Of a DNA stretch of 64,000 nt, positions 30,174-52,854 are shown piece after piece (position 1 is the first letter of the stretch; the number at the start of each line of letters is the position of its first letter). Source of the DNA: an uncultured Verrucomicrobiota bacterium (GTDB lineage: Bacteria; Verrucomicrobiota; Kiritimatiellia; RFP12; UBA1067); the NCBI GenBank assembly GCA_946610035.1, contig CAMOCC010000001.1, positions 35,948 through 99,947 of the forward strand, given 5' to 3'. Under the pieces are notes generated by a model. That model saw only the letters and a program-made list of their open reading frames with translations. It searched no databases and was not told the origin of the DNA. The translations under genes and the position numbers were made by a program.

Positions 30174-30226
30174 ATGTCGTCGATCAAAAACCCGTAGCCG
30201 CCGGCGGAAAAGCCGGGGCCTGGCGC

Positions 30227-31033: not shown

Positions 31034-31043
31034 GTCCAGTATA

Positions 31044-32042: not shown

Positions 32043-32084
32043 AGCCTTGTCCTTTCTTGTAGATGGGTTTTGGTGGGCGTTCGG

Positions 32085-34564: not shown

Positions 34565-36378
34565 CCGGGAATGTAGAGTTCCGCGCCGGGAACGATATCG
34601 ACCCAGGTCCTTTCGCGCCCATACTGCGTATCGAACTGCGCGGCGAACTCGCCAATCGCAAGCCGGACTTCCGAGCCGGACGACAGGGTGTACGGAACGG
34701 CATCAGGCGCAAACGGCGGCGAGAGAAAGATCGTCCGCCGCGCATGGCAGTAGGCTCCATCGCCCAGATGTTTCGCACGGTGCTTGAGATAGCGCGCCGC
34801 GCCCCTACCGGCAGCCACAAGGCGATCGACGGCATTGGGGAGTTCGTCCGGATTGTTGACGACGAGCACGGAACCAGCATCCGGCGTCGCATGGATTCCA
34901 TCGCGCAGCTCATGCCCGAAGCTGCCGATGGCGTCGCCTGCTAATACTGCGTCGTCACGAATGATGGCCGTATGCACGTCACCACGACCGATGCGAACCG
35001 TGCCGCCATCACACGCAACGGGAATCTCGCGGGCGTCCGCCTGACGGCGACCAATGGCTTCGAGTGCCAGAACCGTGAGGCACCCCAAAACGACCGCGAT
35101 GGCGAAAAGGAGGGCGAGACGCCGACGGGTCGCGCCGCTGCCGCCCTGTGCCAGCTCTTTGCCGACGACGACAAGCACCGCTCCGCCGCAGAGCGCCGGG
35201 AGAATCCACAACGTCGGGAAGATGCCGACGGTGCTGAACCAGAGCGAAACGGCAAACGCACTCCAGACGGCCAGCGCAACCTGGACTGTTTTGCGTCGTG
35301 CAAAGGCGAAAAGGAGCATGAACAGCATCAGCCAGGCCGACACATAGGCGCAGCGGAAGACGCGTCCGTACTGCACCATCCAAGTGAGATGGCTGTTCAC
35401 GAGATAGTAGAGACGGTGATTGTCGGAAGGGGCCTGGAACCAGTCGCAGTATGCGCGGCCGGGTTCATCGCCCCAGCCTTCGGGCGCAACCGCCATCATC
35501 TCGGGTGCTGCGGCCCAGCATCTGAGCCGTTGCACGTTGCCTTCATCCACGGAAAGCAGGTTCGCGCCAAAACGTCCGTCCGTCATCTTCCCGACGGCAA
35601 AAAGGGCGACACCTCCCAGAAGAACGGTAAGCATGGTGCCCAGCAGGACCCTTTTCCCCCCAAGACGCGGAACGAAGTGCACAAGCGCCGTGATGGCGAT
35701 GCCGAGGATAGACGCGATAAACGATCCGCGCGAGCCGGTTAGAATCAAGGCGACGAGCGCGGCTGCCGAGGCTCCCAGACACGCTAGGCGTACACCGCAC
35801 CGCCGCCAAACGAGGGCGAATGCGGCAAACAGCGCCGCAATCTCCGCAAAGAGCGTGCCGGCGGCATTGGGGTTGAAGTATCCGAGTCTGAGACGCGCGC
35901 CGTCACGCCACCAACTGGCTTTTTCCGCCTTGTCCCGTTCGGCCGAACGCGGACGCCAGAGCTGCTGAAGAGTCGGCGGCCTCTTGGGATGGGCGGAAAG
36001 GAAGGCGAGATCCTTCGCCTTCCGGTTTTCATCGCCTTCACGCCGGAAACTTCTGAGTCGGCCTTGCGTGAAGACAAGCGTCGCCGCCCCGGCATCAAGA
36101 AAATTGCGATGATGAACGTCGATGCGACCATCCGATTCCTCCATTGCCGTGGCTTCGTGCGACTGCCATGTGCGTTTGCGCGCGCCGGGGCGCGCGTCGA
36201 AGGACATGACGGGGATCGACGCATACTTGAGGACAAGTCGGTCCTTCCCGCCCGGCGCCAGATAGAAATCCGACACGCCTGCCGCGGTCCCTTCGCCCAC
36301 CGGGATATCGTATCCGAAGGCGGGAAGCGCGGCAAGCGCAAGGCAACTCAGGATCTTTCTGGCGCAAGAACCAATCAT
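34519..36378 (-). CDS. Wzy_C-domain (O-antigen-ligase / PglL-like) polytopic membrane protein
   Basis: Many TM helices. LILTGSRGSFIASILG resembles the Wzy_C TxSRG motif. C-terminal VPGAELYIPGW is shared with the paralog at 46911-48680. Confidence 0.55.
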   Translation of the reverse strand: MIGSCARKILSCLALAALPAFGYDIPVGEGTAAGVSDFYLAPGGKDRLVLKYASIPVMSFDARPGARKRTWQSHEATAMEESDGRIDVHHRNFLDAGAATLVFTQGRLRSFRREGDENRKAKDLAFLSAHPKRPPTLQQLWRPRSAERDKAEKASWWRDGARLRLGYFNPNAAGTLFAEIAALFAAFALVWRRCGVRLACLGASAAALVALILTGSRGSFIASILGIAITALVHFVPRLGGKRVLLGTMLTVLLGGVALFAVGKMTDGRFGANLLSVDEGNVQRLRCWAAAPEMMAVAPEGWGDEPGRAYCDWFQAPSDNHRLYYLVNSHLTWMVQYGRVFRCAYVSAWLMLFMLLFAFARRKTVQVALAVWSAFAVSLWFSTVGIFPTLWILPALCGGAVLVVVGKELAQGGSGATRRRLALLFAIAVVLGCLTVLALEAIGRRQADAREIPVACDGGTVRIGRGDVHTAIIRDDAVLAGDAIGSFGHELRDGIHATPDAGSVLVVNNPDELPNAVDRLVAAGRGAARYLKHRAKHLGDGAYCHARRTIFLSPPFAPDAVPYTLSSGSEVRLAIGEFAAQFDTQYGRERTWVDIVPGAELYIPGWISKVLEPARKEVP

Positions 36379-36390
36379 CTACCGAATGTC

Positions 36391-39300
36391 CTATTTGATT
36401 TCGACCGGGAAGCTTCGCTTCGCGGTCTTTCCTCCAAGGCGATCCGAGAAAAGGCAATGGCCGAGGCCGAACGCCACATTCTCCATTTCAATCAGCTCGT
36501 CGTTGTCCTCGCCGCAGTCGCAGTCGCTGAACCAGCCGCGTGTGAGTACGCCCGTGAACTTCGCCGATACCCGGGCCTTGCCTTCGAACGAGAGTGTCGA
36601 TTTCCCGGTGAAGACGCCCGTTGAACGGTTCAACTTGAACGAGAACCCTGTCGCCTTCGTTGCGGTGGCGCTGGAATCCGTGATGGTCACAACCGCGCCC
36701 TCGCCGGCCACATGCATGAGCTCTCCCCAGGCCGGACTCGGCGCGACGGACTCCGTCACGGGCGCAAACTGCAACGCCAGCGTTTCGTCGTCGATGCCGA
36801 CAAGCAGCGAATCGTTCTTGTCATACCAGCTCCCGCGTACGGCAAAGGTGCGCGTAAACGATCTTCCCTTGGTTTTATTCGTCCAGACGGCCTCGGTGCC
36901 GTCCTGCGCGATGACGGCGCGGGTCGACGGGGCGTCCCCGGCGTTGCGCCGTACCTTCAGCACAGCCGCGAACGTTTCGACGCCGACCGTGCGCAACACG
37001 GGCACAATGCCGAAGTTGGCGTCCACCCACGTTACGCTGGACGACCCCGTCAGCGTCTTGCCGTCGGGAAGGTGGATCGTGTATTTAAACTGTCCTTTCT
37101 TTTTCGCCGTCGTCGTCGCGGCCATCTTCAGTGTCATGACGGCATCTCCTGCCGGTTCTGTCGTCGACGCGTTGTCGACAGACGGAAACGCCACGGTGTA
37201 TACGCCGGAAAATGCGCCATAGCTCTCGGCGAGGCCGCATTCACCCGAAGCAAGTGTGCTTGTGCCGTCGTCGACTTCAGCGGCCACAACGCCGTCTGCT
37301 CCCATGACCAGCGAAAGGGTGAAGTTCTTCTTGGTCAAAAGGGCGGTCGCGGTGCCGTCGGCGGCTATGTCGTCGTCCCACTTGCCCGTGAACAGGGCAA
37401 GACTGCCTCCGCCCGCCGAATACTTGGCAGAGATCCTTCCGTTCTTTTTCAGCGACAACGCAAGGAGCCCTTTGAGCGTCGTGCCGTCGGACGCATAGAG
37501 CGGCAACGTCGTCGTCAGGGCCTTGGATGTCCAGTCGTTTGTGAACGGATTGTCTATGGCTTTGCGCGAACCAGCCAGCGTGTAGGCCGTGACGGTGCTC
37601 GCGGCGGACGCGTCGGCCGCAAGCGTCCCCGAACCTTCGCCCACGACCGAAACGTAATAGTTGCCTCCCGTGGATGATATGACGCCCGTCGCGCTCACGC
37701 CGTCTGAAAGGCGTCCCGTGGCAGTCGCCACCGTGCGCGCCGTACCGCCGACGACTTCTATGATGCTGACGGTCGCCGTTGTGTTGGCGTCGCTGCCGCT
37801 GACGGTGATTGTCTGCGAAGCCGCCGCTGCGGAAGTCGCGGCAAGGCGGTATGTGTCGGCGAGGTCGAGCGCTGAAAGCGTCGCGGTCGTTGCGGTGTCG
37901 CCCGTGAACGAATCATTCGTCGTCTGCCAGGAACGGTTGTCCAGATCTCCGTCGCCGTTTGCGCCCATCTCCACCAGCTCCGTGAAACGCTGGAGGTATG
38001 CCGCATTGAACTCGGAAGGACCAATCGCGTCGAACGTCTCGAACGTCCCCGCGAGTTTGCCGTCGCGCGTCAGCGCGAAGAAGTTCGGGATGCCCGTGCG
38101 GTTCTGGTTGGCGCGGTTCGGGTCGTTCCAGCCCCCGTTCAGCGTGTTCTGGCCGACAAGCGACCGGTTGCGGTTCAGTGTCGCTTGCGCGGCGGCATCC
38201 GAGACCATGTGGCGCGAAAGGTAGCCGGCGCCGCTCTGGTAGCGTTCGAGCTCGTTTGTCGCCAGCGTGCCGCGGCCCGAGATGTAGCCGTCGCTAGTGC
38301 GGCCGACGACGCGCGTCAGCAGGCAGGCGGAATTCGTCGTATTCGGGAAGTTGGGCACGTCGATGTCGACGAGAATAACCTTGTTGTCAACGGCCCATTC
38401 CTTGAAAGCCGTGGTTTCCAGTACATGTTCGTCGGTCATCACGCAGTCGGGGCACCAGAGTGAACCACTGGCCACGGCCATCAGGCGCGAATCGGGTTCG
38501 TTGCGGTATTTTTCCATCGCCACGTCCAGGTCCATCGTCCATTCGCCGTAATCAAGCGTCGCGGCGGTGCGCTCGCCGATGAAGAAGGGGTTCTTCGTCG
38601 AGTTCTCCCGTTCGCCCACGAGGAAGATGCGGACGCGTCCGCGCGCGTTCCCGGTTTCGTCCAGGAGCGCGAGGGCGATCGCGCCGCCGGCTTTCGCCGA
38701 TTCCGGCACGGCGACGCGCACGGTCCGCGCGGTTTGATTCTTCTGCCAGGCGACCGTCGCGCGCTGTATTTCCTGGCCGCCATAGGTGGCCGTTAACGTG
38801 TTCGTGGCCGCAAAAGCAGCCGCCGCAGCGTCACGCACGAGCGGAACATCGACGTATTTCGTGAAACCGACCTCGGCCTCCAGTCGCGCGTGTTCATATT
38901 CGGACGTAAACAACAGATCGCCGCCGAGATAATCGGGAATTGGCGCGTACCCGGCGAAGAAGGACTCGGCGCGGCTCTTGAGCGTCGCGGCGCTGTCGGT
39001 GGTAAAGCTTGTCGCCGCCACGCCGCTGGCCTTGGGCCAGTAGAGGCAGAGGTACGGATATCTCGATGGCGTCTTTGTCGCGGTGCCGGCCGCTTTCCCG
39101 GCGAAATTCTTGACGACGGACGTGCCGTCCGGATCCTTGCCGTTTTTCCCGAGAACGAAACAGAACAGATAGCCGGACGCGTCCATCCACTGCGTAAACG
39201 ACGACGATTGCACGTCCGCTTCCAGCGCCGCGCAGTGGCTGCAGCCGGTGTTCGCCCAGAAGACCACGAGCGGACGATGCGCCGTGACGGCGGCGTTCGT

Positions 39301-39417
39301 CGCGGCGACGAAATCGGCATCCCAGCCAGGCAGAGTCGCACCCGCGACGCCAGAGGAGGACACGCCAAGTCCTATCGCAAGGACGAGCGCTGACAAAAGA
39401 GGGGGTTTTGTTCTCAT
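36391..39417 (-). CDS. Large (1008 aa) secreted protein with two thioredoxin-like CxxC modules and the shared Lys-rich C-terminal module
   Basis: Signal peptide. VVFWANTGCSHCAALE and MAVASGSLWCPDCVMTDEH. C-terminal ...KSTLSFEGKARVSAKFTGVL... Confidence 0.55.
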   Translation of the reverse strand: MRTKPPLLSALVLAIGLGVSSSGVAGATLPGWDADFVAATNAAVTAHRPLVVFWANTGCSHCAALEADVQSSSFTQWMDASGYLFCFVLGKNGKDPDGTSVVKNFAGKAAGTATKTPSRYPYLCLYWPKASGVAATSFTTDSAATLKSRAESFFAGYAPIPDYLGGDLLFTSEYEHARLEAEVGFTKYVDVPLVRDAAAAAFAATNTLTATYGGQEIQRATVAWQKNQTARTVRVAVPESAKAGGAIALALLDETGNARGRVRIFLVGERENSTKNPFFIGERTAATLDYGEWTMDLDVAMEKYRNEPDSRLMAVASGSLWCPDCVMTDEHVLETTAFKEWAVDNKVILVDIDVPNFPNTTNSACLLTRVVGRTSDGYISGRGTLATNELERYQSGAGYLSRHMVSDAAAQATLNRNRSLVGQNTLNGGWNDPNRANQNRTGIPNFFALTRDGKLAGTFETFDAIGPSEFNAAYLQRFTELVEMGANGDGDLDNRSWQTTNDSFTGDTATTATLSALDLADTYRLAATSAAAASQTITVSGSDANTTATVSIIEVVGGTARTVATATGRLSDGVSATGVISSTGGNYYVSVVGEGSGTLAADASAASTVTAYTLAGSRKAIDNPFTNDWTSKALTTTLPLYASDGTTLKGLLALSLKKNGRISAKYSAGGGSLALFTGKWDDDIAADGTATALLTKKNFTLSLVMGADGVVAAEVDDGTSTLASGECGLAESYGAFSGVYTVAFPSVDNASTTEPAGDAVMTLKMAATTTAKKKGQFKYTIHLPDGKTLTGSSSVTWVDANFGIVPVLRTVGVETFAAVLKVRRNAGDAPSTRAVIAQDGTEAVWTNKTKGRSFTRTFAVRGSWYDKNDSLLVGIDDETLALQFAPVTESVAPSPAWGELMHVAGEGAVVTITDSSATATKATGFSFKLNRSTGVFTGKSTLSFEGKARVSAKFTGVLTRGWFSDCDCGEDNDELIEMENVAFGLGHCLFSDRLGGKTAKRSFPVEIK

Positions 39418-39490
39418 TGGATTATTCCTTTCATGTTAACTTGTTGTTATTGTTGTTTGTGTTTTGCATTCACCCCTCTATACAAAAATC

Positions 39491-40639
39491 TCAGAATAAC
39501 GCCGGTTGTGCAGCCGTCCGTTTCGCATCTTCAAAAATCTTTTCGCCGCTTGGATATGTAGGCGGATTTTTCGTGGCGAGATCTGCGATGAATTCATTGA
39601 ACAGTCGGTTCTGCCGCGCCTCGCGAATCTCCTTGGCGAACGCAGCGTCGTCAAGTTCGGGATAGAACTCAGGCAGATGGAAAAAGATGCGGCTAAGCGA
39701 GTAGACGGCGCGTCCGTCGCTTTCGACCTGCTTGTCGTCGACCCTGAGGATCATGAGCCCGTTGTCGCCTTCGACGGGCGGCGAGATGTTCCCGGACTCC
39801 ATCCGCGAAAGCGTCTTCGCGAGGACGGGGCTGTCGTTGAAATAATCCAGCGCGAAATCGCCCCATATGCCATCGTCCGTATCCGTTTCGTCGGTGGAAT
39901 ATTTCCGCACGGCGTCGCCGAAGGCGAGCTCGCCGTTTTCGATGGCGCGCCAGACGTTGGTCGCCTGCGCGAAAGTGAAATCGTTGGTGGCCGCGGCCAT
40001 TTGGTTGTAATTGCGCTGGCGTTGGCGAAGGCGGGCGATTTCCTCGTCCGTCACCTTCGCCGGACGGTTTGCGGCGTGCCACATGCGTACGCTCTCGGTG
40101 AGCGCTTCGATCCGGATGCGTTCGTCCAGTGTCGCGCGCTCGTCAGCGGTGAGCTTGCGCACGAACGACGGCCACGACGAAAAATCCTGTTTCGCGCTTT
40201 TCATCGCGCGCGCCCGCATAAGGTCAATCTCGTTCCGTCCCGCGGCTATGCCGTTTGTGGCGGCGAATTCCCTTACGGCGCAGTCGCGGGGGAATCCAAC
40301 CGGAACGGCGGCGAGCACGCGCGCGCCGAGAGCGTCGCGCAGCTGGAGGTTCTGTCCCTTTGGAAGCGACAGCTGCACCATCTTGACGCGCAGATCAATC
40401 AAACGGTCGGCCTCGGCCTTCGTGAGTGCGTTCGTGCCGCAACGGATGAGCACGGCGTCGTCAGCCAGATTCGTCCGCGCAGCCCGCGTCTTTGATTTCT
40501 TGGCACGATCACCGGTTTGTACGCCTGCGGGTGAAGCCGCATCCGCTTCGGGCTGCTCGCGCGAACACCCCGCGACAAGCAGAAGCGGCACGACAACGGA
40601 AAGCAGGAATTTTCTCGTGATGTTCATGTTCATGCGCAT
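39491..40639 (-). CDS. SurA/PrsA-like parvulin-type peptidyl-prolyl isomerase lipoprotein
   Basis: Lipobox LLVAGCS. PPIase/chaperone-like architecture. Paralog of 44533-45585. Confidence 0.5.
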   Translation of the reverse strand: MRMNMNITRKFLLSVVVPLLLVAGCSREQPEADAASPAGVQTGDRAKKSKTRAARTNLADDAVLIRCGTNALTKAEADRLIDLRVKMVQLSLPKGQNLQLRDALGARVLAAVPVGFPRDCAVREFAATNGIAAGRNEIDLMRARAMKSAKQDFSSWPSFVRKLTADERATLDERIRIEALTESVRMWHAANRPAKVTDEEIARLRQRQRNYNQMAAATNDFTFAQATNVWRAIENGELAFGDAVRKYSTDETDTDDGIWGDFALDYFNDSPVLAKTLSRMESGNISPPVEGDNGLMILRVDDKQVESDGRAVYSLSRIFFHLPEFYPELDDAAFAKEIREARQNRLFNEFIADLATKNPPTYPSGEKIFEDAKRTAAQPALF

Positions 40640-40645
40640 GGGTTT

Positions 40646-40683
40646 AGCCTGAAAAGGGGAATCGAGAAACCCCGATTCCCCCT
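40646..40683 (-). terminator. Rho-independent terminator after the left 'IWGCDCE' gene
   Basis: Minus-strand AAGGGGGAATCG-gggtttct-CGATTCCCCTTTT. Ends only ~12 nt before the next ATG. Confidence 0.6.
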
Positions 40684-40712
40684 TTGGCGTTCAGTAAGAA
40701 CGTATGGTTGGA

Positions 40713-41720
40713 TTACGACGCGTCGCCGCAGCTGGTCAGGAACAGAAGAGCGTTGACAACGTCGTTGTCGCCCTCATACTCTTCAGGCTCCATGTCTGCG
40801 CCATCGACGGTCGCGGTTGTGTAGGCCGCAACTGCGACGTCAGCAGCATCGACATACTCGCCGAACTGCTCACCTTCCTCCTCGACGGGCCAGAGTTCGT
40901 CATCGTCGTCGGAGGAGAGAGCGCCAGCAGCTGCGGCAGCCTCGATGCGCGTGACGAGCGTCTCGGCATCAGCAGTCTTCTTCGAGAACTTGAAGGACTT
41001 GCTGAGACGACCAGTCTTGCGGAGCTTTTGGGACGCAGACTTGTTGTACTTGATCTTCCAGGATCCGTACGCGGCCGTCAGGTCGGTGTCGTAGTACGCC
41101 GCCGTGCAGGGGCAGACCTGCCACGCGGTGCAATCGCTCTCGCCGCAGAACTTGCAACCGCCAGCCTCGGAGCCCGCGAGCAGGAAGCCTGCGAAGTTGC
41201 CGGACATGCTCGACAGGATCGTACGGCAGGTCGTGCCGCTAACCTTGCCGAAGCCAGCGCCGAGAAGCGCGACGGTGTTGTCGGCGTCCCAGTTGCGGAG
41301 GAGCCACACGCCCTCGGCCTTGTCGCCGGTGTCGATGCGGTTGAACGCGGCCCAGCCGAAGGTCGTGGAGAAGATGTTGAACACATTGTCCGCCCCGACA
41401 TTCCAGAAGAGGTAGCCGCCGACGGTCGTGCCGTTGTTGTAGGTGCGCCATGCGGGATCGGCGATCGTTTCGCAATCGCATCCCCAGATCACACCGGCGA
41501 TCTTCGTGGTGCCCTGCTTGCGGACAGCAATCTTCTCACCCTTGACGTCAGAATAGTCTTCACCCTCAAGCGTGGCGATCGTCTTGGTGTACTTAATCTC
41601 CTTGCACGCGGTGGACTTGACCGTCAGCGAGACGTCGTAGACCTGCGCATCCAGGGAGGTGGCTGCAAAGGCACCCGCACCAATGGCAGCGGTCGCTGCA
41701 GCAATCATGAGTTTCTTCAT
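40713..41720 (-). CDS. Secreted Cys-rich 'IWGCDCE' family protein (paralog 2, left target of the switch)
   Basis: MKKLMIAAATAAIGAGAFA. AQVYDVSLTVKST, GVIWGCDCETIADP, SGNFAGF, CKFCGESDC, GSWKIKYNKSASQK. Acidic C-terminal tail. Confidence 0.65.
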   Translation of the reverse strand: MKKLMIAAATAAIGAGAFAATSLDAQVYDVSLTVKSTACKEIKYTKTIATLEGEDYSDVKGEKIAVRKQGTTKIAGVIWGCDCETIADPAWRTYNNGTTVGGYLFWNVGADNVFNIFSTTFGWAAFNRIDTGDKAEGVWLLRNWDADNTVALLGAGFGKVSGTTCRTILSSMSGNFAGFLLAGSEAGGCKFCGESDCTAWQVCPCTAAYYDTDLTAAYGSWKIKYNKSASQKLRKTGRLSKSFKFSKKTADAETLVTRIEAAAAAGALSSDDDDELWPVEEEGEQFGEYVDAADVAVAAYTTATVDGADMEPEEYEGDNDVVNALLFLTSCGDAS

Positions 41721-41988
41721 TGTTTCTTTTTCCTTTTGCTTATTCGTTCGGCTTGGCGGACTTCCGCGTTGCCTCCCCCGGAGCTACCCGGTCGATCCAT
41801 TTGTTCCGGCGGTATCTTGCCGACCCACTTTGTTGCACCCGCGTGAGCACGGTCGACACACATGTTATGCCATTCAGCAGATTCGGGACGGTTTGAGTTT
41901 CACACCCCTCTTCCACCGACTCCTGTAGAGCAATTTGCGGGTCAACTTTCATTGAGCCCGGTTTTTCCTAGGCCCGGACACAATGTCC
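41690..41988. repeat. Left arm of ~295-bp inverted repeat (IR-L). Includes the 5' leader and first ~10 codons of the left family gene.
   Basis: Its reverse complement matches 43384-43680 almost base-for-base (about 5 mismatches near the ATG). Inner end is the palindromic GGACACAATGTCC. Confidence 0.9.
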
Positions 41989-42106
41989 GTGCCGGAGGCG
42001 TGTTTGTTTGCACCAAAGGCAAGTTTTTCTAAAGCAACATCAAACTGAGAAACTAGTGTTGAGGCTGACGGCCCCGTCATAGGGTGACTTTTTGGGCTTT
42101 GCCCTT

Positions 42107-43216
42107 CTAACAGACATCGCTGCAAAGCGGCGGAATGGCCCGCATCATAGAGTCCCTTAACGCTGACAGGGACGGTTGAGTGTATCGTGAGTGCATTCCT
42201 CCTCCGCCATGACCGGTGATGGCATCGGTAATGTGGGGCGGGATGCCGGCCTCGTCCATCATTGATATGAATGTCGCTCGCAACGAATGAAAAGAGGCCC
42301 GTCCCGCCCCGATTTGCATCACTCCGCACCTCCTAAAGGCATTTGCAAGTCGTCTTGACGGTCGATTTCTTACGGAATCCGGGAATATGTATCCTTTCTC
42401 CGTCATTCTGGCCTTGATGGCCTCCCCAGCCTCCCTTATTAGAGGTATAATGAGAGGGCGTGGCTTTTTCAAGCGCGTTTTGTTGGGGACGATTCTGAGA
42501 AATTTCCCTCCATCTGCTATTTCGGACGCTTCGAGCTCGGTTACATCCGATAGCCGCAATCCTGTGCCGAAGCCAATGGCCATCACGGCGGACATATCCT
42601 GGTCGTTTTCTCGCAAGTATTCATATATTGAGCTGGCTTCTGCCAGGGAGAGTCTTCTATAGAACTCTCTGGACCTGCTTCCAGCTGCTAGATTTCTGGA
42701 TTGTTGTGGACCGAGGTCCCATATTGAGTCGTCCAGCCCGACTGCTTGCCAGCATCGCCTATAGAAAGAAACCATACGTCGACATGATACGTATCTAGCC
42801 GACAACTCGTCCGAAATCGCAGCCGCCATTGACGGTGTCAGCTCGGACGGGCTTCCTTGACACTTCTCCATGGCAATTTGGTGAAGAATCTCGAGCCAGC
42901 GCGTGTGAGTCGGCTCTTCTTTGATGCACCGGGCGTCAATGACCACAGGAAGCGACAGTGCGCCCAGATTGTCCCAGTTGACGGATTTAGCAGCATTAAG
43001 AACCCTTAGCCTTTGTTCTGCGTCGCGCCCAAGGTTCTTAAGGTGCCTTAACCACTCCAACTCGCTCTGCGATTGGGGTATGAAGGCTCGCGCACGGATA
43101 CGCGCGACTTCGATATCGCCTGTTTTCAGTGAGAACCAGCGTATGCGGCCCTCGGTTCTTACTACATAGTAGAGCATTCTGCCCTTGCGTTGTATTGATC
43201 CACATTGAATTTTCAT
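42107..43216 (-). CDS. Tyrosine site-specific recombinase (integrase/invertase family)
   Basis: GLRLSDVTEL (box I Arg), KTRLKKPRPLIIP (Lys), HSLRATFISMM (H-x-x-R), ITGH, MHSRYTQ (Tyr nucleophile). Confidence 0.85.
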   Translation of the reverse strand: MKIQCGSIQRKGRMLYYVVRTEGRIRWFSLKTGDIEVARIRARAFIPQSQSELEWLRHLKNLGRDAEQRLRVLNAAKSVNWDNLGALSLPVVIDARCIKEEPTHTRWLEILHQIAMEKCQGSPSELTPSMAAAISDELSARYVSCRRMVSFYRRCWQAVGLDDSIWDLGPQQSRNLAAGSRSREFYRRLSLAEASSIYEYLRENDQDMSAVMAIGFGTGLRLSDVTELEASEIADGGKFLRIVPNKTRLKKPRPLIIPLIREAGEAIKARMTEKGYIFPDSVRNRPSRRLANAFRRCGVMQIGAGRASFHSLRATFISMMDEAGIPPHITDAITGHGGGGMHSRYTQPSLSALRDSMMRAIPPLCSDVC

Positions 43217-43312
43217 GATGTCGACATAGTATAAGTGCTTTATGTCTGATTGTCACGTGGAGCCGCGGAATTATGGCCATTATGAGCCGAAAGACACCCG
43301 AAAAAAAAATCA

Positions 43313-43358
43313 CGATACCCCCTTGCGCAACGGGGGTAAAATGTGGTACAATATTGTC
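43313..43358 (+). promoter_or_regulatory. Strong sigma70-type promoter inside the invertible segment: -35 TTGCGC, 18-nt spacer, TGgTACAAT. Near-duplicate of the rpsL promoter module at 11895-11945.
   Basis: cccTTGCGCaacgggggtaaaatgTGgTACAATat versus cccTTGCCAaacgggggcaaaatgTGgTAAACTat. Confidence 0.6.
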
Positions 43359-43383
43359 GCTTCCGTGGAACAGGGCGGGTTTC

Positions 43384-43680
43384 GGACATTGTGTCCGGGC
43401 CTAGGAAAAACCGGGCTCAATGAAAGTTGACCCGCAAATTGCTCTACAGGAGTCGGTGGAAGAGGGGTGTGAAACTCAAACCGTCCCGAATCTGCTGAAT
43501 GGCATAACATGTGTGTCGACCGTGCTCACGCGGGTGCAACAAAGTGGGTCGGCAAGATACCGCCGGAACAAATGGATCGACCGGGTAGCTCCGGGGGGAG
43601 GCGAAGCGGAAGTCCGCCAAGCTGAACGAAAAAGCAAAAGGAAACAAAGAAACAATGAAGAAGCTCATGATTGCTGCCGC
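43384..43680. repeat. Right arm of ~295-bp inverted repeat (IR-R). Includes the 5' leader and first ~10 codons of the right family gene.
   Basis: See IR-L. Inner end GGACATTGTGTCC. Confidence 0.9.
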
Positions 43681-44440
43681 TGTTGCGGCCATGACTGCTG
43701 GTGCCTTCGCTGATGCTTGCAGCGATCCCGAAGTGTCGAGCCAGTGCCGTGCCTGGGATGTCAAGATGTCCCTCAAGTCGCTCGGCCCCAAGAAGACCAC
43801 ATGCAAGATCTCGGCTGAGTCTCCTTGCGAAGACGACACCAAGGACACCGTCTACTACATGGACAACGTGACGCGTAAGGTGAAGGGCTACCTCTGGGTT
43901 TGCGACTACACCTGCGGCGCGGATGCCAACGTCGTTCTCTGGGATGAGAAGAACAAGGTCGCTCTTATTGCCTACGCTGAAGAGGCCGTCGCTATGGACA
44001 GTCTCTACGTCTATGGCAAGAAGGCCACGAAGGTTGGCGGAACGCTCGTGTTCGAGGGTGCTGACGCTCTTGGCGTCGACGGCATCGCGGTCACCGCTTC
44101 CGGCGTCACCGGCAAGATGGTCCGTGGCACGGCGGACGACGACTGCTACGTCAAGTCCCTCTCCGGCTACGCGGCTGGCGAGATCGCCTACATCAAGCCC
44201 GGCGCCAAGACGATCGTCAAGTCCGGCGGTCTCTGCGGCGAGCCTGAGGTCGAGGTTTGCGACGAGTACACGGCTAAGCTCCTCCCGTTCTGCGATGCTT
44301 GCTGCTTCGAGGGCTGGTGCGATGCCGAAGATGCTCCTGACATGGTCCCGGCGGCTGGTACCTGGTCCATGAAGTACAGCAAGAAGGTCTCGAAGGCCAA
44401 CAAGTCCATTGCGCAGCTCGTTCCTGCCTATGCCCTCTAA
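43655..44440 (+). CDS. Secreted Cys-rich 'IWGCDCE' family protein (paralog 3, right target of the switch; divergent member)
   Basis: MKKLMIAAAVAAMTAGAFA. AWDVKMSLKSL, KGYLWVCDYTCG, SLSGYAAG, CDACCFEGWC, AAGTWSMKYSKKVSK. Confidence 0.6.
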   Translation: MKKLMIAAAVAAMTAGAFADACSDPEVSSQCRAWDVKMSLKSLGPKKTTCKISAESPCEDDTKDTVYYMDNVTRKVKGYLWVCDYTCGADANVVLWDEKNKVALIAYAEEAVAMDSLYVYGKKATKVGGTLVFEGADALGVDGIAVTASGVTGKMVRGTADDDCYVKSLSGYAAGEIAYIKPGAKTIVKSGGLCGEPEVEVCDEYTAKLLPFCDACCFEGWCDAEDAPDMVPAAGTWSMKYSKKVSKANKSIAQLVPAYAL

Positions 44441-44464
44441 TCGGACATACCTGTAACGCAGCTA

Positions 44465-44500
44465 AGAGGGGTGATGGCTGATGCTATCCCCCTCTTTCAT
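44465..44500 (+). terminator. Rho-independent terminator after the right family gene
   Basis: AGAGGGG-tgatggctgatgctat-CCCCTCT followed by TTTCATTT. Confidence 0.6.
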
Positions 44501-44532
44501 TTATAGGTCCAATTGATGATAATATTGCAAAG

Positions 44533-45585
44533 ATGAGCCACCGCCTTTCGACATCATTGACTCTTGCATTGGCGACATGGAGCCTTGCGGCGTTTGCCGA
44601 TGCAAATGCAACCGGGGGGACTGCCGCAGTGCCGAAGAAGGACTCGAAGGCGACCATCCTTGTCCGTGTAAACGACAAAGTCATCACACGCGGAGATCTT
44701 GACCGCTACTCCGACATGATGGTCTTCCTTCTACGGAATCGTCGCAACGGCAAGCTCACGGCCAAGGAGGCGGAGAAGTTCAAGAAGAAGAATCTGCAAC
44801 GCTTCAGCGAGATGATGATGTCTCGACTCGTTATCTCCGAAGGCCTGGCGTCATCAAACATCGTTGAAACAGCCCACGCTCGCGAGATGAAAGAGCGCGA
44901 GTGCTTGAGGAATTACGCGCACAAGCGGCAGACAATGCCCCAGCTGGAGGCGGCGTTGAAGAAGGCCGGATATCTTGAGGATTTCAAGTCGGGGCTGGAG
45001 TTCGACATAAAGCTTCAGAGTTTTTTCGAAACAGTCCGCTCAAATGAGTATTTCGCGTCGGAGGCGGACCTCCCCGTTGTAAAGGCAAACTTGACGCGTT
45101 ACAACGAAATAGCCGCCGCCACGAACGCCCTGAACCTCGCCTTGGCGCGTTCCGTCCGCGAAAAGGCGCTCGCCGGTGAAGACTTTTCAAAATTGGCCGA
45201 TCAGTATTCCCAGGATTCAGAGAAGGAACCGGGCGGAGCACTTGGGGATTGCGATGAAACGGACTTCCCGGAAGAGGCGACCTTGTGGAAGACGTTGAGC
45301 AAGGCGCCGGAGGGATTCATCAGCGAGGTTGTCGAGTCCGACGCAGGCTATGTTATCTACAAGGTCCTGCGGCACAACACGGCGGAAACGTCGAATACGG
45401 GCACTCCTTCAACTTCACTTGCGAGAATATACTTCCGTCAGGCCTACCTGTATCCGGAACAGACGGATGACGAGTTGATGGCTGACATTGCCGCCGAGAA
45501 GCGGGCGAAGTGCATGGCGGATGTCTACAAGGATTTCCGGTCCCAAGTCAAGGTTGACTACCCTGACGGGCACGTGAAAAAGTAA
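44533..45585 (+). CDS. SurA/PrsA-like parvulin-type PPIase (paralog of 39491-40639)
   Basis: Signal peptide. SQDSEKEPGGALGDCDETDF resembles the PpiC-type rotamase core. TGaTGATAAT sits 9 nt upstream of the ATG. Confidence 0.5.
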   Translation: MSHRLSTSLTLALATWSLAAFADANATGGTAAVPKKDSKATILVRVNDKVITRGDLDRYSDMMVFLLRNRRNGKLTAKEAEKFKKKNLQRFSEMMMSRLVISEGLASSNIVETAHAREMKERECLRNYAHKRQTMPQLEAALKKAGYLEDFKSGLEFDIKLQSFFETVRSNEYFASEADLPVVKANLTRYNEIAAATNALNLALARSVREKALAGEDFSKLADQYSQDSEKEPGGALGDCDETDFPEEATLWKTLSKAPEGFISEVVESDAGYVIYKVLRHNTAETSNTGTPSTSLARIYFRQAYLYPEQTDDELMADIAAEKRAKCMADVYKDFRSQVKVDYPDGHVKK

Positions 45586-45608: not shown

Positions 45609-46883
45609 ATGAGAAGGCTAGTCCTCATGGCTATTGTTGGGTGCGTACTTGGCATCCACAGCACGGCAAACGCCGTTGATTTGGATAATGTGTCCTCTGG
45701 TGCGGTCGTTCCAGGCGTATGGAATTCCAATTTCAACGCCTGCAAGAAGTATGCGGACGACAACAAGACTCCGCTGCTTCTGCTTTGGTCCAATCCCGGA
45801 TGCCCCAAGTGCAACAAGTTGAAGACGGCATGCAATACCGCCGAGTTCAAGGCGTGGATGGCGAAGAAGAAAATCGTCATGGCCGTATCCGAGGGAGATC
45901 TGACGGTCAAGGCCTTTGCCAAGAATTCGTCGGGGCACTTCCCCTATATGCGCCTTTATTGGCCGGCTGGCGGTGCGGATGTGAGATTCTCCGGCCGTAG
46001 CGGTGAGATGCCGGTTACCTCGGGATCGCTTCAGGCGCAGTTGATGAACTCGGTCGACCGTTATACATCCGCATGGAATCCGGACAACGCCGGCGGCGGT
46101 GGAAGTGTCGAGCCGACGGATCCGGAGCCCGAACCGGAAGTCGACCCCACGACGGATGGAGTCGTCGGCAAGGAGTGGGGCAAGTCGCGTAAACTCGTTG
46201 GTGCGGCAACCGACGAAGCTGGCAATGTCGTTGGACGCGTCGAGCTCAAGCTTGGGAAGGCCAGTGCCAAGAAAACGGCGCGAATCAGCGCTAAATTCAT
46301 GGATTTCACTGGGCGTCAGAAGTCCTTCAAGTCCCTTACCGTCAAGGTCAACACCCGGACGAGCTTCATTTCGAGCGGTGCCGCCGGCTCGGTCAGCGCA
46401 ATCATAGAGGGTCAGTCCCTCTCGGGCAAGCTCGTCACCGCCACTGGGACAAGTTGCACAATCAGCGTTGCCAATGTCGGAGGTTCACTCGGCTCCGGCA
46501 AGGGCACATTCGTGCTTGAGGACTTCCCCAGCACCCTGGGAGGAATGCCGATTATCGGTGGCGAGGAATATCTTCCGTTTGACCAGACTTTCGACTACTC
46601 CGGCAACAAAATGACCTTCCCCCGCGGGGCGACGCTTACCTACAACAAGGCCAAGGGCGAATTTGTGCTGAGCCGTGTCGGCAACCCCTCGTCGCTCAAG
46701 CTCTCCTACAAGTATCCGACCGGACTCTTCAAGGGCACGTTCAAGGCGTACATAGAGGTGTCTGCAGGCCGCAAGCGCGCATACACGGCGAATGTGGCCG
46801 GGCTTGTTGTCGATGGCAAGGGAGCCGGACAAGTGACTGTCAAGGGCGTTTCAGGCACCTTCCCTTGCAGGATTGACCTGTAA
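45609..46883 (+). CDS. Secreted protein with N-terminal thioredoxin-like CxxC module and the shared Lys-rich C-terminal module
   Basis: LLWSNPGCPKCNKLK. C-terminal SLKLSYKYPTGLFKGTFKAYIEV... Confidence 0.55.
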   Translation: MRRLVLMAIVGCVLGIHSTANAVDLDNVSSGAVVPGVWNSNFNACKKYADDNKTPLLLLWSNPGCPKCNKLKTACNTAEFKAWMAKKKIVMAVSEGDLTVKAFAKNSSGHFPYMRLYWPAGGADVRFSGRSGEMPVTSGSLQAQLMNSVDRYTSAWNPDNAGGGGSVEPTDPEPEPEVDPTTDGVVGKEWGKSRKLVGAATDEAGNVVGRVELKLGKASAKKTARISAKFMDFTGRQKSFKSLTVKVNTRTSFISSGAAGSVSAIIEGQSLSGKLVTATGTSCTISVANVGGSLGSGKGTFVLEDFPSTLGGMPIIGGEEYLPFDQTFDYSGNKMTFPRGATLTYNKAKGEFVLSRVGNPSSLKLSYKYPTGLFKGTFKAYIEVSAGRKRAYTANVAGLVVDGKGAGQVTVKGVSGTFPCRIDL

Positions 46884-46910: not shown

Positions 46911-48680
46911 ATGTCGATTCGCAATACAGGAATTGCCATCGTTCTGCTCGGCAGCGCATTTTGCGCTGTCGAGCTTGAAGCTTCTCCTGTATGCCCCCGC
47001 TTTGTCCAGACAAGCTCGTTCAGCTACAAGATGGTGGAGCCAGACGGGTCCGTCGTGCGGTTCGTCCAGGACGAAGACGATCCGTCCGGTTTGGTTGGCG
47101 AGGGCCCCTGGGCGGCGGAGCGGACGGGCTCCCAGATATTGGCCATGGCCGAGGACCAGAATGGGCAGCGCGGCTTTCTTTTCCAGGAGGGTTTCCTTGC
47201 AGCAAGCCTTGAGGACGGCATCGAGCATCGCCATCAGCGTCCCGCAACGAGGGATCCGGACCCGGCGGCATTTTCCGACCTTTGGGCGCATGATTCCGCA
47301 GTGGAGAGCCTGGGTGCTCCGCCCGACATCTGGAGTCGCGGAGAATACAGGCTGCGCCTCTGGCTCGAGAACCCCAACGTCACGGCCGTTCTTTTCGCGC
47401 AGTTGGCGCTGTGCGGCCTGGCGGCACTGTTGGCGGCGGGACGGGGCGTAAAGGCACTTGGATTCCTCGTTTCGGCAGCGGGAATCGTATGCCTGCTGCT
47501 GACGAAGTCCCGCGGGGGGCTTCTCGCATTCGCCGCGGGAGCGGCGGTGCTTGGCGGATTGCGCTTGAGAAGCCTCCTGAACGTCAAGTTCCTCGCTGTC
47601 GCAGGTGTCTTGATTATTGTCGCCGTGGCAGGCGTGTTGGCCGCTGGCTCAGGCGCCCGCTTTACATCGGAATTTCTCAAACAGGATCAATCCAACAGTC
47701 GACTTGCAATCTGGAGCGAAGTGCCGAGGATGATGGTTGACGCCCCTGGTGGATGGGGTGCGGGGCAGTCCGGGCGTGCATACGTCGACTGGTATCAGAA
47801 GGATAGCACCTGCCTGTTGAAGAATATGATCAGCTCCCATGTGACGAAGCTGGTCGAATATGGGTGGATCGGTCGATTCGTCTACATCTTTGCATGGTTT
47901 TGCGTCATAGCGCTTTGCGCGCTCTATTCCGTTCGAGGCGGAACTCCTCTTGCATGCTCGCTATGGACTGTGTTGTGCGCGGCGGCATGGCTGAATCCGG
48001 TCCTTGAGTCCTTCGAGCCTTGGGTGATGCCGGTCGCATCTTCGCTTTTGCTGCTCGCCGGTTGTCGGCGATACGCTGGTCGACCCGCTGTCGCCATGAT
48101 TGTTCTCTCTGCGATTGCCGCCGCATCATCCCTTGTCGCAGTCGCCTTCGTTGGAGCGCGCTCTTCGAAATCGACCGACGTTTCCGTACGTGCCGATGGT
48201 GGTGCCGTCATCGTAGGTGTCGGCGGGGACAGTGCTCCTTCGACTTGGATCGTCGACGACGACTACACGCTCCACGGAGGCTATTGGTGGAGGCTGGGCC
48301 GCGATGTGCGTGCGTACGTAGGGGAGACTTCGACATCCGTCGGTTTTTCACGGACGTTGGACGATGTCCCTTCCAAGGTCGGGCGTCTGGTGCTCGTAGG
48401 CGGGCGCGCATTGGAATACGTCCGTCGCTGGACGGACGACAGGGCGTCGCTTCCGATTTCCGACGAACTGGTGTTTGTGTCCCCGAAGCTTTCGGCGCTC
48501 GACGTACCAGGAGATCTCGCCAGGACAAAGGGTTTCCGCATGTACCAGGGAGCGTTTGCGGCGCGGCTGGCACCTGCGTCCGAAACTGATGCGCCATGGC
48601 TTGAAGTCGTGCCGGGGGCGGAGCTTTATCTTCCCAATTGGCTGGATTTATCAACAAAAACAATCCGAAAGGAGAAATGA
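46911..48680 (+). CDS. Wzy_C-domain (O-antigen-ligase/PglL-like) membrane protein (paralog of 34519-36378)
   Basis: LLLTKSRGGLLAFAAG (Wzy_C motif). C-terminal VPGAELYLPNW. Confidence 0.6.
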   Translation: MSIRNTGIAIVLLGSAFCAVELEASPVCPRFVQTSSFSYKMVEPDGSVVRFVQDEDDPSGLVGEGPWAAERTGSQILAMAEDQNGQRGFLFQEGFLAASLEDGIEHRHQRPATRDPDPAAFSDLWAHDSAVESLGAPPDIWSRGEYRLRLWLENPNVTAVLFAQLALCGLAALLAAGRGVKALGFLVSAAGIVCLLLTKSRGGLLAFAAGAAVLGGLRLRSLLNVKFLAVAGVLIIVAVAGVLAAGSGARFTSEFLKQDQSNSRLAIWSEVPRMMVDAPGGWGAGQSGRAYVDWYQKDSTCLLKNMISSHVTKLVEYGWIGRFVYIFAWFCVIALCALYSVRGGTPLACSLWTVLCAAAWLNPVLESFEPWVMPVASSLLLLAGCRRYAGRPAVAMIVLSAIAAASSLVAVAFVGARSSKSTDVSVRADGGAVIVGVGGDSAPSTWIVDDDYTLHGGYWWRLGRDVRAYVGETSTSVGFSRTLDDVPSKVGRLVLVGGRALEYVRRWTDDRASLPISDELVFVSPKLSALDVPGDLARTKGFRMYQGAFAARLAPASETDAPWLEVVPGAELYLPNWLDLSTKTIRKEK

Positions 48681-48690
48681 CATGAAGAAG

Positions 48691-49155
48691 ATACTGTTCG
48701 CGGCGTTTGCTGCGTTTGTCGCATGCACGGGCCTTGCGGCTAAGTCGGTGACGCTGTACTACGGCGACGGCGACACCCTGGAACCCGAAGACAGCGTTAT
48801 GTTCTCCCTGGATGATTTCCCGGAGGAGATCAACGGCTATCCTGTCCTCGACGAGTATCTGCCCAACGGCGTGGAGCTCACATGGACCGGCAAGAAGTTC
48901 AAGGCTCCCAAAAAAGGCAAGGTGAAGTACAGCAAGAGCGAAGAGGACTTCATTACGACAAACGACGAGAATCCGTGCGGACTTTCCGTGAGCTATTCCA
49001 AGAAGAAGGGGATCATCAAGGGCTCCTTCAAGGTCTACTGCCAGAAAAGCGAGAAGAAGCTGAAGTCGTACACGGCGAAGTACAGCGGCTACCTGGGGGG
49101 GACGATCAGCGTCACTATAAAGAAATCCACCGTTGCGGAGGCCAGCATTGACTAA
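48691..49155 (+). CDS. Small secreted protein consisting essentially of a signal peptide plus the shared Lys-rich C-terminal module
   Basis: KVKYSKSEEDF...GIIKGSFKVYCQKSEKKLKSYTAKYSGYLGG. Confidence 0.55.
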   Translation: MLFAAFAAFVACTGLAAKSVTLYYGDGDTLEPEDSVMFSLDDFPEEINGYPVLDEYLPNGVELTWTGKKFKAPKKGKVKYSKSEEDFITTNDENPCGLSVSYSKKKGIIKGSFKVYCQKSEKKLKSYTAKYSGYLGGTISVTIKKSTVAEASID

Positions 49156-50083
49156 GGTAGTCTATCAGAAAAAGGGCAGCGGCGGCAAAGGCCGCAATGC
49201 ACGAGTCCGGCTGCTTGTCGGCGCTGGCCTGTTGGTCTGCGCCGCGGCGGCGGCATTGCTTTGGTTCGTTTCCAGCGGCGAGTCGGGCGTGGATGAACCG
49301 CGTCCGGCCCGCGTAGCGAAGGCCAGGATCAAGCATGGAGACGGACGGGCGCGCGATGCGGTGCAAAGCGTTCTCGACAAAAACAAAAATAAGCTGGGGA
49401 AGGATAAGTCCGGCAGAAAGTCGGACAAGCCCAGGCCTCTCGCCGACGAATTCGCTTCGTTCTCCCCTGCTGACAGGGCCCTGGCCCAGGCGGTGCAGGC
49501 CGCCTGGGACGCAGACGACTTCGAGGCGGTAGTCGAGGCGGCCGACAAGGCGCTTGGATCCGCCAATCCCGACGTTCGCGAGGGTGCCGTGACCGCCCTT
49601 GGATGGTTCGGCGCAAAGGCTCTTCCCATGCTCACGTCCCTCATGGCGGACCCTGATGAAAACGTCAGCGAAACAGCCATCAACGAATGGGAGCTCGCCC
49701 TCAGCGACGTAAACGACCTCGACTTGCAGGTCGAAATCGCCACGGCGGCTATGTCCACCGTCGACAATCGCGACGCACTGGAGATGATCGTCACGGAAAT
49801 CACGGCGCATGACGATGAAATCAAGGTGATCAACTCCCTGATAGACATCATGGAGAGCGGTAATTCCGTAGGCGCGGAGATCGCCCGCGAGGAGTACGAG
49901 GGACTGACGGGCGAGGAATGGACGTCGGTGGAGGATGCGGAGGCGTGGCTCAGGGAGAACTACGTGCCGACAGACGAGGAGGGCGAGCGTCGCGTCGCCG
50001 AAATGAAGCAGGCCGAGGCGGAGCGGACGGGGGGCGAGCGCGAAGCCGACCTCCCCGTCGATGAGCCGGAAGGCGACGAGTAG
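49133..50083 (+). CDS. Membrane-anchored HEAT-like repeat protein with acidic tail (paralog of 30227-31033; start uncertain)
   Basis: TM helix LLVGAGLLVCAAAAALLWFV. ALGWFGAKALPMLTSLMADPDENV repeats align to the paralog. Confidence 0.5.
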   Translation: MRRPALTKVVYQKKGSGGKGRNARVRLLVGAGLLVCAAAAALLWFVSSGESGVDEPRPARVAKARIKHGDGRARDAVQSVLDKNKNKLGKDKSGRKSDKPRPLADEFASFSPADRALAQAVQAAWDADDFEAVVEAADKALGSANPDVREGAVTALGWFGAKALPMLTSLMADPDENVSETAINEWELALSDVNDLDLQVEIATAAMSTVDNRDALEMIVTEITAHDDEIKVINSLIDIMESGNSVGAEIAREEYEGLTGEEWTSVEDAEAWLRENYVPTDEEGERRVAEMKQAEAERTGGEREADLPVDEPEGDE

Positions 50084-50134: not shown

Positions 50135-50944
50135 ATGAAAAAGATGATGGTGATGGCGGCGTTTGCCGTCTTTGGGTCTATCGCCTGGGCTGATGCGCAG
50201 GTCTATGAGATGCAGCTCACGCTGAAGACTACGCAGACGAAATCCGGGAAGGTGAGTTTCGTCTCCTGCGACTGCGGAGTGGACGAAGCGACGCTCTATC
50301 GCAAGCAGGGGACGGTGAAGATCAAGGGCCTCATCTGGGGATGCGACTGCGAGACGATCGCCGAGCCTCAGATATCCGATGACGGAGCCAGCCTCTCCGA
50401 GTCCGGCTATGGCTACATCTTCTGGAACGAGACGACGAAGAAGCCCCTCAACCTCAAGTTCGAGTGGGAGTTCCTCAACCGCATCGACAAGACCGCGACC
50501 AAGTCCGAGGGAACCTGGAAGCTCTCCGATGACGATGACACGTTTTGCCTTTACGGTTCCGGATTCGGCACCGTGAAGGACACGACCGTCAAGGAGCCGA
50601 TATGCGAACGCATAGCCACCTGGATCCCGTCCATGAACGGCAACATCGCCGGTTGGTCGACGCCCGGCGCCATCGTCACCGTAAAGGCGACGAGCGGCGA
50701 GTGCTCCTGGTGCGAGAAGGTCGAGGGCACGGAGGAGGAGACCGAGTCCGCTAAGGGCTGGTCCCTTTGCGCTTGCGAAGAATCCGACGAGCGTACCGCC
50801 GCATCCGGCACATGGAAGCTGAAGTACAACGCCAAGGCCTCGAAGGCTCTTTCAAGCACGAAGAAGGAAATTCAGAGAGTGACCGAGGTCTACAAGTTCC
50901 CCGCTTACGTCAAGCGTCTCATCGAAGGCGGAGAAGAGGATTGA
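50135..50944 (+). CDS. Secreted Cys-rich 'IWGCDCE' family protein (paralog 4)
   Basis: AQVYEMQLTLKTT, GLIWGCDCETIAEP, NGNIAGW, CSWCEKVEG, SGTWKLKYNAKASK. Confidence 0.65.
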   Translation: MKKMMVMAAFAVFGSIAWADAQVYEMQLTLKTTQTKSGKVSFVSCDCGVDEATLYRKQGTVKIKGLIWGCDCETIAEPQISDDGASLSESGYGYIFWNETTKKPLNLKFEWEFLNRIDKTATKSEGTWKLSDDDDTFCLYGSGFGTVKDTTVKEPICERIATWIPSMNGNIAGWSTPGAIVTVKATSGECSWCEKVEGTEEETESAKGWSLCACEESDERTAASGTWKLKYNAKASKALSSTKKEIQRVTEVYKFPAYVKRLIEGGEED

Positions 50945-52820: not shown

Positions 52821-52854
52821 TGGACGTCTGAAACAAGGTGGGGTGGGGGGAAAG

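Follow-up and report, generated by a model that had tools for sequence, protein, structure and literature searches.

Within the 64-kb stretch of DNA analysed here (the window; 64,000 nucleotides from an uncultured Verrucomicrobiota bacterium of the class Kiritimatiellia, contained in ENA scaffold ERZ28612940:scaffold_307), a tyrosine recombinase gene is enclosed by a long inverted repeat and flanked by two outward-facing genes for secreted proteins, each at the head of a larger gene cluster, and the whole has the appearance of a DNA inversion switch. The three open reading frames (ORFs) at the centre of the locus are as claimed by an earlier, sequence-only reading: a 335-amino-acid (aa) protein at 40713–41720 on the minus strand, the 369-aa recombinase at 42107–43216, also on the minus strand, and a 261-aa protein at 43655–44440 on the plus strand. 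Both outer genes start with MKKLMIAAA; the 261-aa protein has the MKKLMIAA... signal peptide, and the 335-aa protein carries an IWGCDCE motif and an acidic C-terminal tail. They are distant paralogues, being 25% identical in the family alignment, and neither Pfam nor NCBIfam holds a family for either surface protein.

The near-perfect inverted arms of about 295 bp that had been reported at 41690–41988 and 43384–43680 are confirmed, the complete repeat proving slightly larger (41665–41989 versus 43383–43710, with two small indels). The innermost 215 nt of the arms (41775–41989 and 43383–43597) are 100% identical as inverted copies. Beyond this perfect stretch the arms extend outward for 51 nt at 92% and then for 65 nt at 82% identity, the latter reaching into the first ~18 codons of the outer genes, and this outward decay suggests gene conversion between the arms. 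A 43-nt probe taken from the inner end matches the window at the two arms only, where shuffled sequence leads one to expect 0 matches. The proposed invertible cassette is the 1393 bp between the arms (41990–43382), with a guanine–cytosine (GC) content of ~0.52–0.53 compared with ~0.62 in the surroundings, and a Logan unitig from another sample (L002) consists of the cassette with exactly 30 nt of the repeat at either end. In what follows, the cassette end at the 5′ side of the recombinase gene is referred to as the P end and that at its 3′ side as the T end.

At the inner end of each arm lies a 15-bp palindromic core of the form CGGACA-NNN-TGTCCG, a pattern with only two matches in the window. 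The left core (41975–41989; CGGACA-CAA-TGTCCG, CGGACACAATGTCCG) forms the inner end of the left repeat and marks the T end, while the right core (43383–43397; CGGACA-TTG-TGTCCG, CGGACATTGTGTCCG), its exact reverse complement, marks the P end. Among related loci the pattern occurs exactly twice, in inverted orientation, around the recombinase homologues of L007, L015, L022, L023, L024 and L028, and L012 and L018 possess variant cores in which each deviation is mirrored in the partner site. The central triplet varies from locus to locus (CAA, CCA, CCC, CCG and others) and is always complementary between partners, which fits what a crossover region must be. The repeat shared by the two sides is just 16–17 bp in L015, L018, L022, L023 and L024, and since so many relatives share so little, the long repeat is not required for recombination. 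It had been suggested that the palindromes at the inner repeat ends could serve as recombinase sites, and the conservation and invariable pairing of the 15-bp core in relatives lend this support. The same comparisons support the 15-bp core, rather than the long repeat, as the putative crossover site proper. The core constitutes the first 15 nt of the leader, and both cores precede the start codons.

A direct repeat, TTAGAA-N5-TT(A/G/T)GAA, is found ~40–60 nt inside the core at the T end of L012, L015, L018, L019, L022, L023, L024 and L056. It is absent from the promoter end and is represented by a single copy in the window (42027–42032), and it could be an arm-type or accessory-protein site lending the switch directionality. 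In L023 (~5770–5808), a run of ~20 T followed by ~20 G stands directly outside the promoter-side core; this represents an artefact of assembly or else a homopolymer tract belonging to the alternative flank.

According to the leader alignment, the right arm holds the 5′ untranslated region (UTR) of the 261-aa gene (43383–43654, plus strand; 272 nt from core to ATG) and the left arm holds that of the 335-aa gene (41721–41989, minus strand). The distance from core to ATG is 267–275 nt in 33 distinct leader sequences, and the conserved leader sequence reads GGCCTAGG...AATGAAAGTTGAC. Alignment of 24 leaders gives a nine-helix consensus comprising 43 pairs, with 97% of cells paired. Compensatory changes occur in 14 of the 43 pairs, as against 7.4 ± 1.5 in column shuffles (0/500) and 4–6 in slid controls. 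A scan of 40500–44700 against Rfam at E ≤ 1 gave no match, and the leader is thus presented here as a candidate new cis-regulatory or stabilising RNA. Inverted repeats of unusual length that extend into coding sequence, which the sequence-only reading had regarded as distinctive of this architecture, are indeed present, but they are not a peculiarity of the recombination sites: as judged from the alignments, each arm of the long repeat is one copy of a conserved, predicted structured 5′ UTR of ~270 nt together with conserved signal-peptide codons. A consensus scan of the fixed leaders detected no promoter-like site. Given that the leader lacks such a match and behaves as a transcribed, structured RNA, it needs a promoter upstream.

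An ORF of 70–97 aa running through the leader (41740–41952, minus strand; 43420–43713, plus strand) was considered and rejected, its stops and frames differing among the 33 leaders. The ATGAAAGTTGAC start with its 'MKVD' codons (43420–43431 and 41941–41952) is conserved in nearly all leaders, and the ORF that follows this start ranges from 5 to 79 codons in length. The MKVD start may represent a short upstream ORF or merely a conserved RNA/DNA motif.

A predicted sigma70-type promoter, recognised as a conserved motif, faces outward at the P end (43323–43352, plus strand), with TTGCGC at 43323–43328, an 18-nt spacer and TGgTACAAT at 43344–43352. The −10 element is TG-extended and an A-run lies upstream (~43300–43309); transcription would be inferred to start near 43359. 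The promoter had previously been described as canonical. The element and its conserved position hold good, the adjective does not, as the −35 hexamer agrees with the consensus in just 3 of its 6 bases, and it is because of this weak −35 that a generic scan did not list the promoter. In relatives, the P end of all nine complete loci (9/9) bears an outward TTGACx or TTGCGC, a 17–18-nt spacer and TAnAAT, with an A/T run before them. Across all fetched DNA, the pattern TTGnnn-17/18-TAnnnT with the −10 ending 28–31 nt from the core is present in 24 distinct homologous P ends, whereas 1 of 77 other core-adjacent flanks matches the promoter pattern, at 45 nt from the core; the promoter of the window ends 30 nt from its core. 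The 261-aa gene is joined to this promoter in the recorded orientation and is therefore predicted to be ON. The 335-aa gene, joined to the T end, is predicted to be OFF or to be expressed by read-through only. Back-to-back with the outward promoter is a probable promoter of the recombinase gene (GTGACA-17-TATACT; 43228–43256, minus strand), which scores 10/12 in the consensus scan and is a sequence match only.

The recombinase itself is of the integrase type with an extra N-terminal domain. It matches Pfam Phage_integrase (PF00589) over residues 188–348 with an E value of 9e-16 and the PHROG family phrog_1, 'integrase', with an E value of 3e-30. The catalytic constellation is complete, as had been stated, with R221, K246, H310, R313, H336 and Y345 invariant across 25 recombinase homologues. 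It is not a serine invertase, the only catalytic domain found being the tyrosine-type PF00589; with Xer models it reaches 20 bits, far below the cutoff of 279, and in the NCBIfam search it reaches no named family. Those of the 207 recombinase homologues that have a source name come from Kiritimatiellia/Kiritimatiellae. The closest relatives, at 42–51% identity, are all situated in similar Kiritimatiellia loci. More generally, the recombinases around cored loci are 32–51% identical to that of the window, many of them in metagenome-assembled genomes of Kiritimatiellia, and predicted viral contigs contain only relatives at ≤40% identity. A profile scan of one genome per species identified 34 recombinase loci, nearly all in gut or rumen metagenome-assembled genomes and nearly all labelled Kiritimatiellia, Verrucomicrobia or 'Lentisphaeraceae'. 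A large share of the homologues of the recombinase and of the family proteins are found on contigs of only ~1.1–1.5 kb, indicating that assemblies systematically break on both sides of these genes; such breaks are expected for repeat-flanked or orientation-heterogeneous DNA.

Inversion is supported by the occurrence of both junction types in homologous elements. An exact-sequence look-up of one family protein, P0122, retrieved contigs from several samples, of which L099 is 99.69% identical to L097/L098/L102 over 2941 nt, with the homology starting exactly at the core. These shared 2941 nt comprise the leader, the family gene and the genes for a peptidyl-prolyl isomerase (PPIase) and a thioredoxin-like protein. 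Upstream of the core, L099 displays the conserved promoter end, preceded by an rsmI-like gene, whereas L097/L098/L102 display the co-directional 3′ end of the recombinase gene; the former junction comes from one sample and the latter from three others. The sequences thus support the presence of both orientations within one species at the P0122 locus. Between species, L018, L022 and L024 have the conserved leader at the P end, whereas in L015 and L023 it adjoins the T end. When L015 is compared with L022, the leaders are 88% and the P ends 82% identical, these elements being contiguous in L022 and at opposite cassette ends in L015. Furthermore, contig L082 stops on the last base of the core, contig L104 begins at core base 2, and 10 of the 40 matches on JGI contigs (39 stretches, one with two) lie 4–16 nt from a contig end, on the cassette side. 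As a 15-bp site is too short to cause a repeat break, contig breaks at the core indicate two alternative continuations in the reads. In L045, whose left-type gene is 85.6% identical, 16 nt of the P end adjoin the left-type gene, a weak hint of the other orientation. The pair L056 versus L060/L067 was considered as two orientations in one species and is not relied on, for the T-end identity is only 82–93%, and a genome that has the conserved leader twice could produce an identical pattern.

Several relatives depart from the architecture of the window. The cassette of L022/L080 (2565–7683, 5.1 kb) additionally contains Abi_2, a gene for an nSTAND1/AAA ATPase and an unknown gene of 389 aa, so that this switch carries defence-like cargo; on its second flank stands an operon of glycosyltransferase genes (GT2, GT2, GT4, GT8), which makes for a different alternative output. 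At 6027–6563 of L069 (also in L048/L071) lies a promoter-only cassette of 491 bp with no recombinase inside, flanked by two inverted copies of core plus leader (~130-nt leaders) and two divergent MKKL... genes. In the P0025/P0128 species (L089/L090/L091 and L083/L084), the recombinase gene comes after the HEAT gene at the far end of an 8-gene cluster and a DUF3990/HTH gene pair adjoins the leader and core, which shows that the cassette need not contain the recombinase; the P0128/P0025 look-up revealed this other architecture, and no inversion. Finally, in L054 (JGI Ga0310694_10015751), a related strain at 98–99% identity, window position 30188 is joined directly to remnants of the 5′ part of the recombinase gene (42939–42988 and 43162–43216). 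L054 is missing the entire left cluster together with most of the recombinase gene, retains the promoter, core, leader and 261-aa gene, and is apparently a locked-ON derivative or else a chimeric contig.

We consider it likely that the locus is a self-contained site-specific inversion switch that chooses between two clusters. The earlier proposal of a promoter-inversion switch is in this respect supported by homology: the cores are conserved, the promoter stands at a fixed distance and both orientations are seen in homologous elements. We propose the following mechanism. The recombinase would pair the two cores, exchange strands within them and flip the 1393-bp cassette. In the recorded orientation, the promoter would transcribe across the right core and the 272-nt leader into the 261-aa gene, and transcription would probably continue past an attenuating hairpin into the right PPIase/thioredoxin-like/Wzy_C cluster. 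Once inverted, the cassette would join this promoter to the identical leader before the 335-aa paralogue and the mirror-image cluster. The cell would in this way display one of two versions of a cysteine-rich, probably β-barrel, envelope protein system, and the outcome would be a two-way toggle of phase or antigenic variation. For the copy in the window, we infer inversion, promoter activity, mutually exclusive expression and a surface location of the products.

A number of observations weigh against this switch. In addition to the weak −35 element of the window promoter, the contigs of the window strain (window = L001, L041, L054) all have the 261-aa gene at the promoter, and exact-protein look-ups with the recombinase and both family proteins retrieved only their own scaffold and short unitigs, with no opposite orientation. 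The path of the scaffold through the 325-nt repeat may have been chosen by the assembler. No terminator-like hairpin was found between the recombinase stop codon and the left leader (z −0.37), so read-through from the recombinase promoter may express the 'OFF' cluster to some level, and the 215-nt perfect repeat could permit RecA-dependent inversion too.

This last point leads to the alternative that survives best, in which inversion occurs by RecA-dependent homologous recombination between the identical 215–325-nt leaders, as in the sap locus of Campylobacter fetus, with the recombinase being a passenger or serving some other function. In its favour, the repeat is perfect over a long stretch, its identity decays outward as gene conversion predicts, and the leader of L045 is a mosaic that resembles the right arm on its inner side and the left arm on its outer side. 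However, many relatives share the 15–17-bp core alone, which is too short for RecA, and yet exhibit both junction types; moreover, the homology breakpoint in relatives falls exactly at the core, and the core, at the inner edge of the long repeat, is conserved across recombinases that are only ~45% identical. On balance we regard RecA-driven inversion as unlikely. Less probable still, and in our view very improbable, is a static arrangement in which an integrase-bearing remnant of a mobile element lies between divergent operons with their own promoters, the leaders having been homogenised by gene conversion. The integrase-like character of the recombinase (phrog_1) and its distant relatives in predicted viral contigs, the GC content of the cassette below that of its surroundings, the Abi_2 and STAND-ATPase cargo of the L022 segment, and the related strain without the left cluster and most of the recombinase gene (L054) would all be compatible with such a remnant. 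Set against these are the linkage of recombinase, core pair, outward promoter and MKKLMIAA cluster in dozens of metagenomic loci, a cassette without phage or transposon genes, leaders without a promoter-like site, and homologues seen in both orientations. A prophage or insertion-sequence remnant was likewise rejected, because the recombinase is accompanied by the core pair, promoter and leader from species to species. We attach equally little weight to the idea that the cassette inverts mainly to control the recombinase or read-through, with both clusters expressed at differing levels, for although it would suit the lack of a terminator between the recombinase stop codon and the left leader and the TTAGAA-N5-TT(A/G/T)GAA repeat conserved at the T end of eight relatives, the outward promoter of relatives (TTGACC-18-TATAAT) is far closer to consensus than any read-through source, the recombinase promoter is only a sequence match, and L069-type cassettes place a promoter alone between two divergent family genes.

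The inversion switch displays individual features of several known systems. Promoter inversion as a means of phase variation is familiar from Proteobacteria, Bacteroides, Clostridioides and mycoplasmas. In Salmonella, the Hin segment contains the gene for its recombinase as well as an outward promoter, from which transcription crosses one site into the flanking operon. The Hin enzyme belongs to the serine recombinases and depends on Fis and an enhancer; a target operon is present on only one flank of the segment, the alternative flagellin being encoded elsewhere and controlled via a repressor. The cassette described here resembles the Hin segment in having both recombinase and outward promoter inside, and differs from it in its tyrosine enzyme and in having alternative targets on both flanks. 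Location of the recombinase inside the invertible DNA, which the sequence-only reading had put forward as a distinguishing trait, therefore has a precedent in Hin, and among relatives it is common without being universal (L069, the P0025 species). In the sap (S-layer) locus of Campylobacter fetus, a promoter segment lies between opposed surface-protein homologues whose conserved 5′ regions form long inverted repeats that include coding sequence; inversion is largely RecA-dependent and the segment has no dedicated recombinase. The architecture is similar, but the present locus has a short conserved core and a recombinase, and 15–17 bp of repeat are all that relatives possess. The tyrosine recombinases of E. 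coli fimS (FimB/FimE) and of Bacteroides Tsr-type elements flip a short promoter element between short inverted repeats and thereby control surface structures; they are encoded outside the element and provide ON/OFF control of one operon. The promoter-only relative L069 (491 bp) resembles these elements, while database family searches gave no sequence-level assignment of the window recombinase to fimS or Tsr-type recombinases. A shufflon of the Rci type has multiple sites within coding sequence and swaps 3′ segments; here there are two sites, upstream of the starts.

There are also similarities to the vpma and vsp loci of Mycoplasma agalactiae and M. bovis (Xer1/Mbr), in which site-specific inversion brings a unique promoter in front of one or another of the surface-protein genes. 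The recombination sites there are located in a 5′ UTR which, like the signal peptide, is highly conserved among otherwise divergent genes, and a tyrosine recombinase is encoded in the locus (PMC2268961). The Kiritimatiellia locus likewise has a leader that is 100% identical over 215 nt, a common MKKLMIAAA start and a core inside the leader. In contrast, the vpma/vsp recombinase is Xer-like and encoded beside the gene array, whereas the present one is integrase-like, with its extra N-terminal domain, and encoded inside the cassette; and at least 6 genes and sites, for lipoproteins, are shuffled in vpma/vsp, compared with two sites and two multi-gene clusters here. The switch thus combines the design of Hin with that of vpma/vsp and belongs to neither family.

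That the locus is a phase-variation switch in an unstudied lineage, possibly with a new leader RNA and involving no new principle, is well supported. Full-text literature searches found no paper linking Kiritimatiellia with invertons or inversion. We also consider, tentatively and without yet favouring it, that the locus belongs to an undescribed, class-wide Kiritimatiellia family of integrase-derived inversion cassettes, each with a core pair, a promoter at fixed distance, usually a recombinase and sometimes Abi/STAND or rsmI cargo, which would toggle envelope clusters through a new regulatory leader RNA of ~270 nt. If this is true, the leader could be an mRNA stabiliser, a sensor or coupled to an upstream ORF, and DNA orientation and RNA-level control would be layered. 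Kiritimatiellia are mostly uncultured gut and rumen bacteria, for which the locus gives a directly testable model of surface variation. Together with its relatives, it provides a defined 15-bp site, a clade of dedicated recombinases, a promoter and a leader that are both conserved, and a new cysteine-rich family of secreted proteins, each accompanied by chaperone, redox and Wzy_C partners of its own. Existing metagenomes would allow the orientation of the short-repeat relatives to be scored.

The two family genes head paralogous, mirror-image clusters of ~11 kb each, the left at 30227–41720 on the minus strand and the right from 43655 to ~54720 on the plus strand. Beyond the 335-aa gene, the left cluster encodes a PPIase (39491–40639), a thioredoxin-like protein of 1008 aa (36391–39417), a Wzy_C protein (34519–36378), an M12-like peptidase (32960–34564), a second family protein (32085–32963), an unknown protein (31044–32042) and a HEAT protein (30227–31033), all on the minus strand. 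Beyond the 261-aa gene, the right cluster encodes a PPIase (44533–45585), a thioredoxin-like protein of 424 aa (45609–46883), a Wzy_C protein (46911–48680), a HEAT protein (~49133–50083), a second family protein (50135–50944), a second thioredoxin-like protein (51012–52820) and an M12-like peptidase (52723–54720), all on the plus strand; apart from the unknown gene, these neighbours were assigned by Pfam and by tblastn paralogy. The PPIases are SurA/PrsA-like and the Wzy_C proteins O-antigen-ligase/PglL-like, and the clusters may constitute a dedicated folding, oxidation and glycosylation system for cysteine-rich secreted proteins.

Both outer genes had been thought to end in rho-independent terminators, such that the switch would toggle exactly these two paralogues. 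Strong hairpins do follow both genes (ΔG −31.3 and −32.7 kcal/mol; z −5.6 and −4.1), that 3′ of the 261-aa gene lying at 44464–44496 and being followed by UUUCAUUUAU, but they may be attenuators instead of full stops. The genes next to the hairpins start 73 and 92 nt away and the promoter scan gave no match before them, and for this reason we interpret the hairpins as probably attenuating transcription beyond a strongly expressed first gene. The restriction of the switch to two paralogues is also doubtful, as each heads a mirror-image cluster and the order at the cluster start (family gene, PPIase, then thioredoxin-like and/or Wzy_C) recurs beside other homologous recombinases. The targets are probably the two paralogous ~11-kb clusters and not two genes alone; PPIase and thioredoxin-like genes, with Wzy_C too in L012, adjoin homologous recombinases in at least 12 loci.

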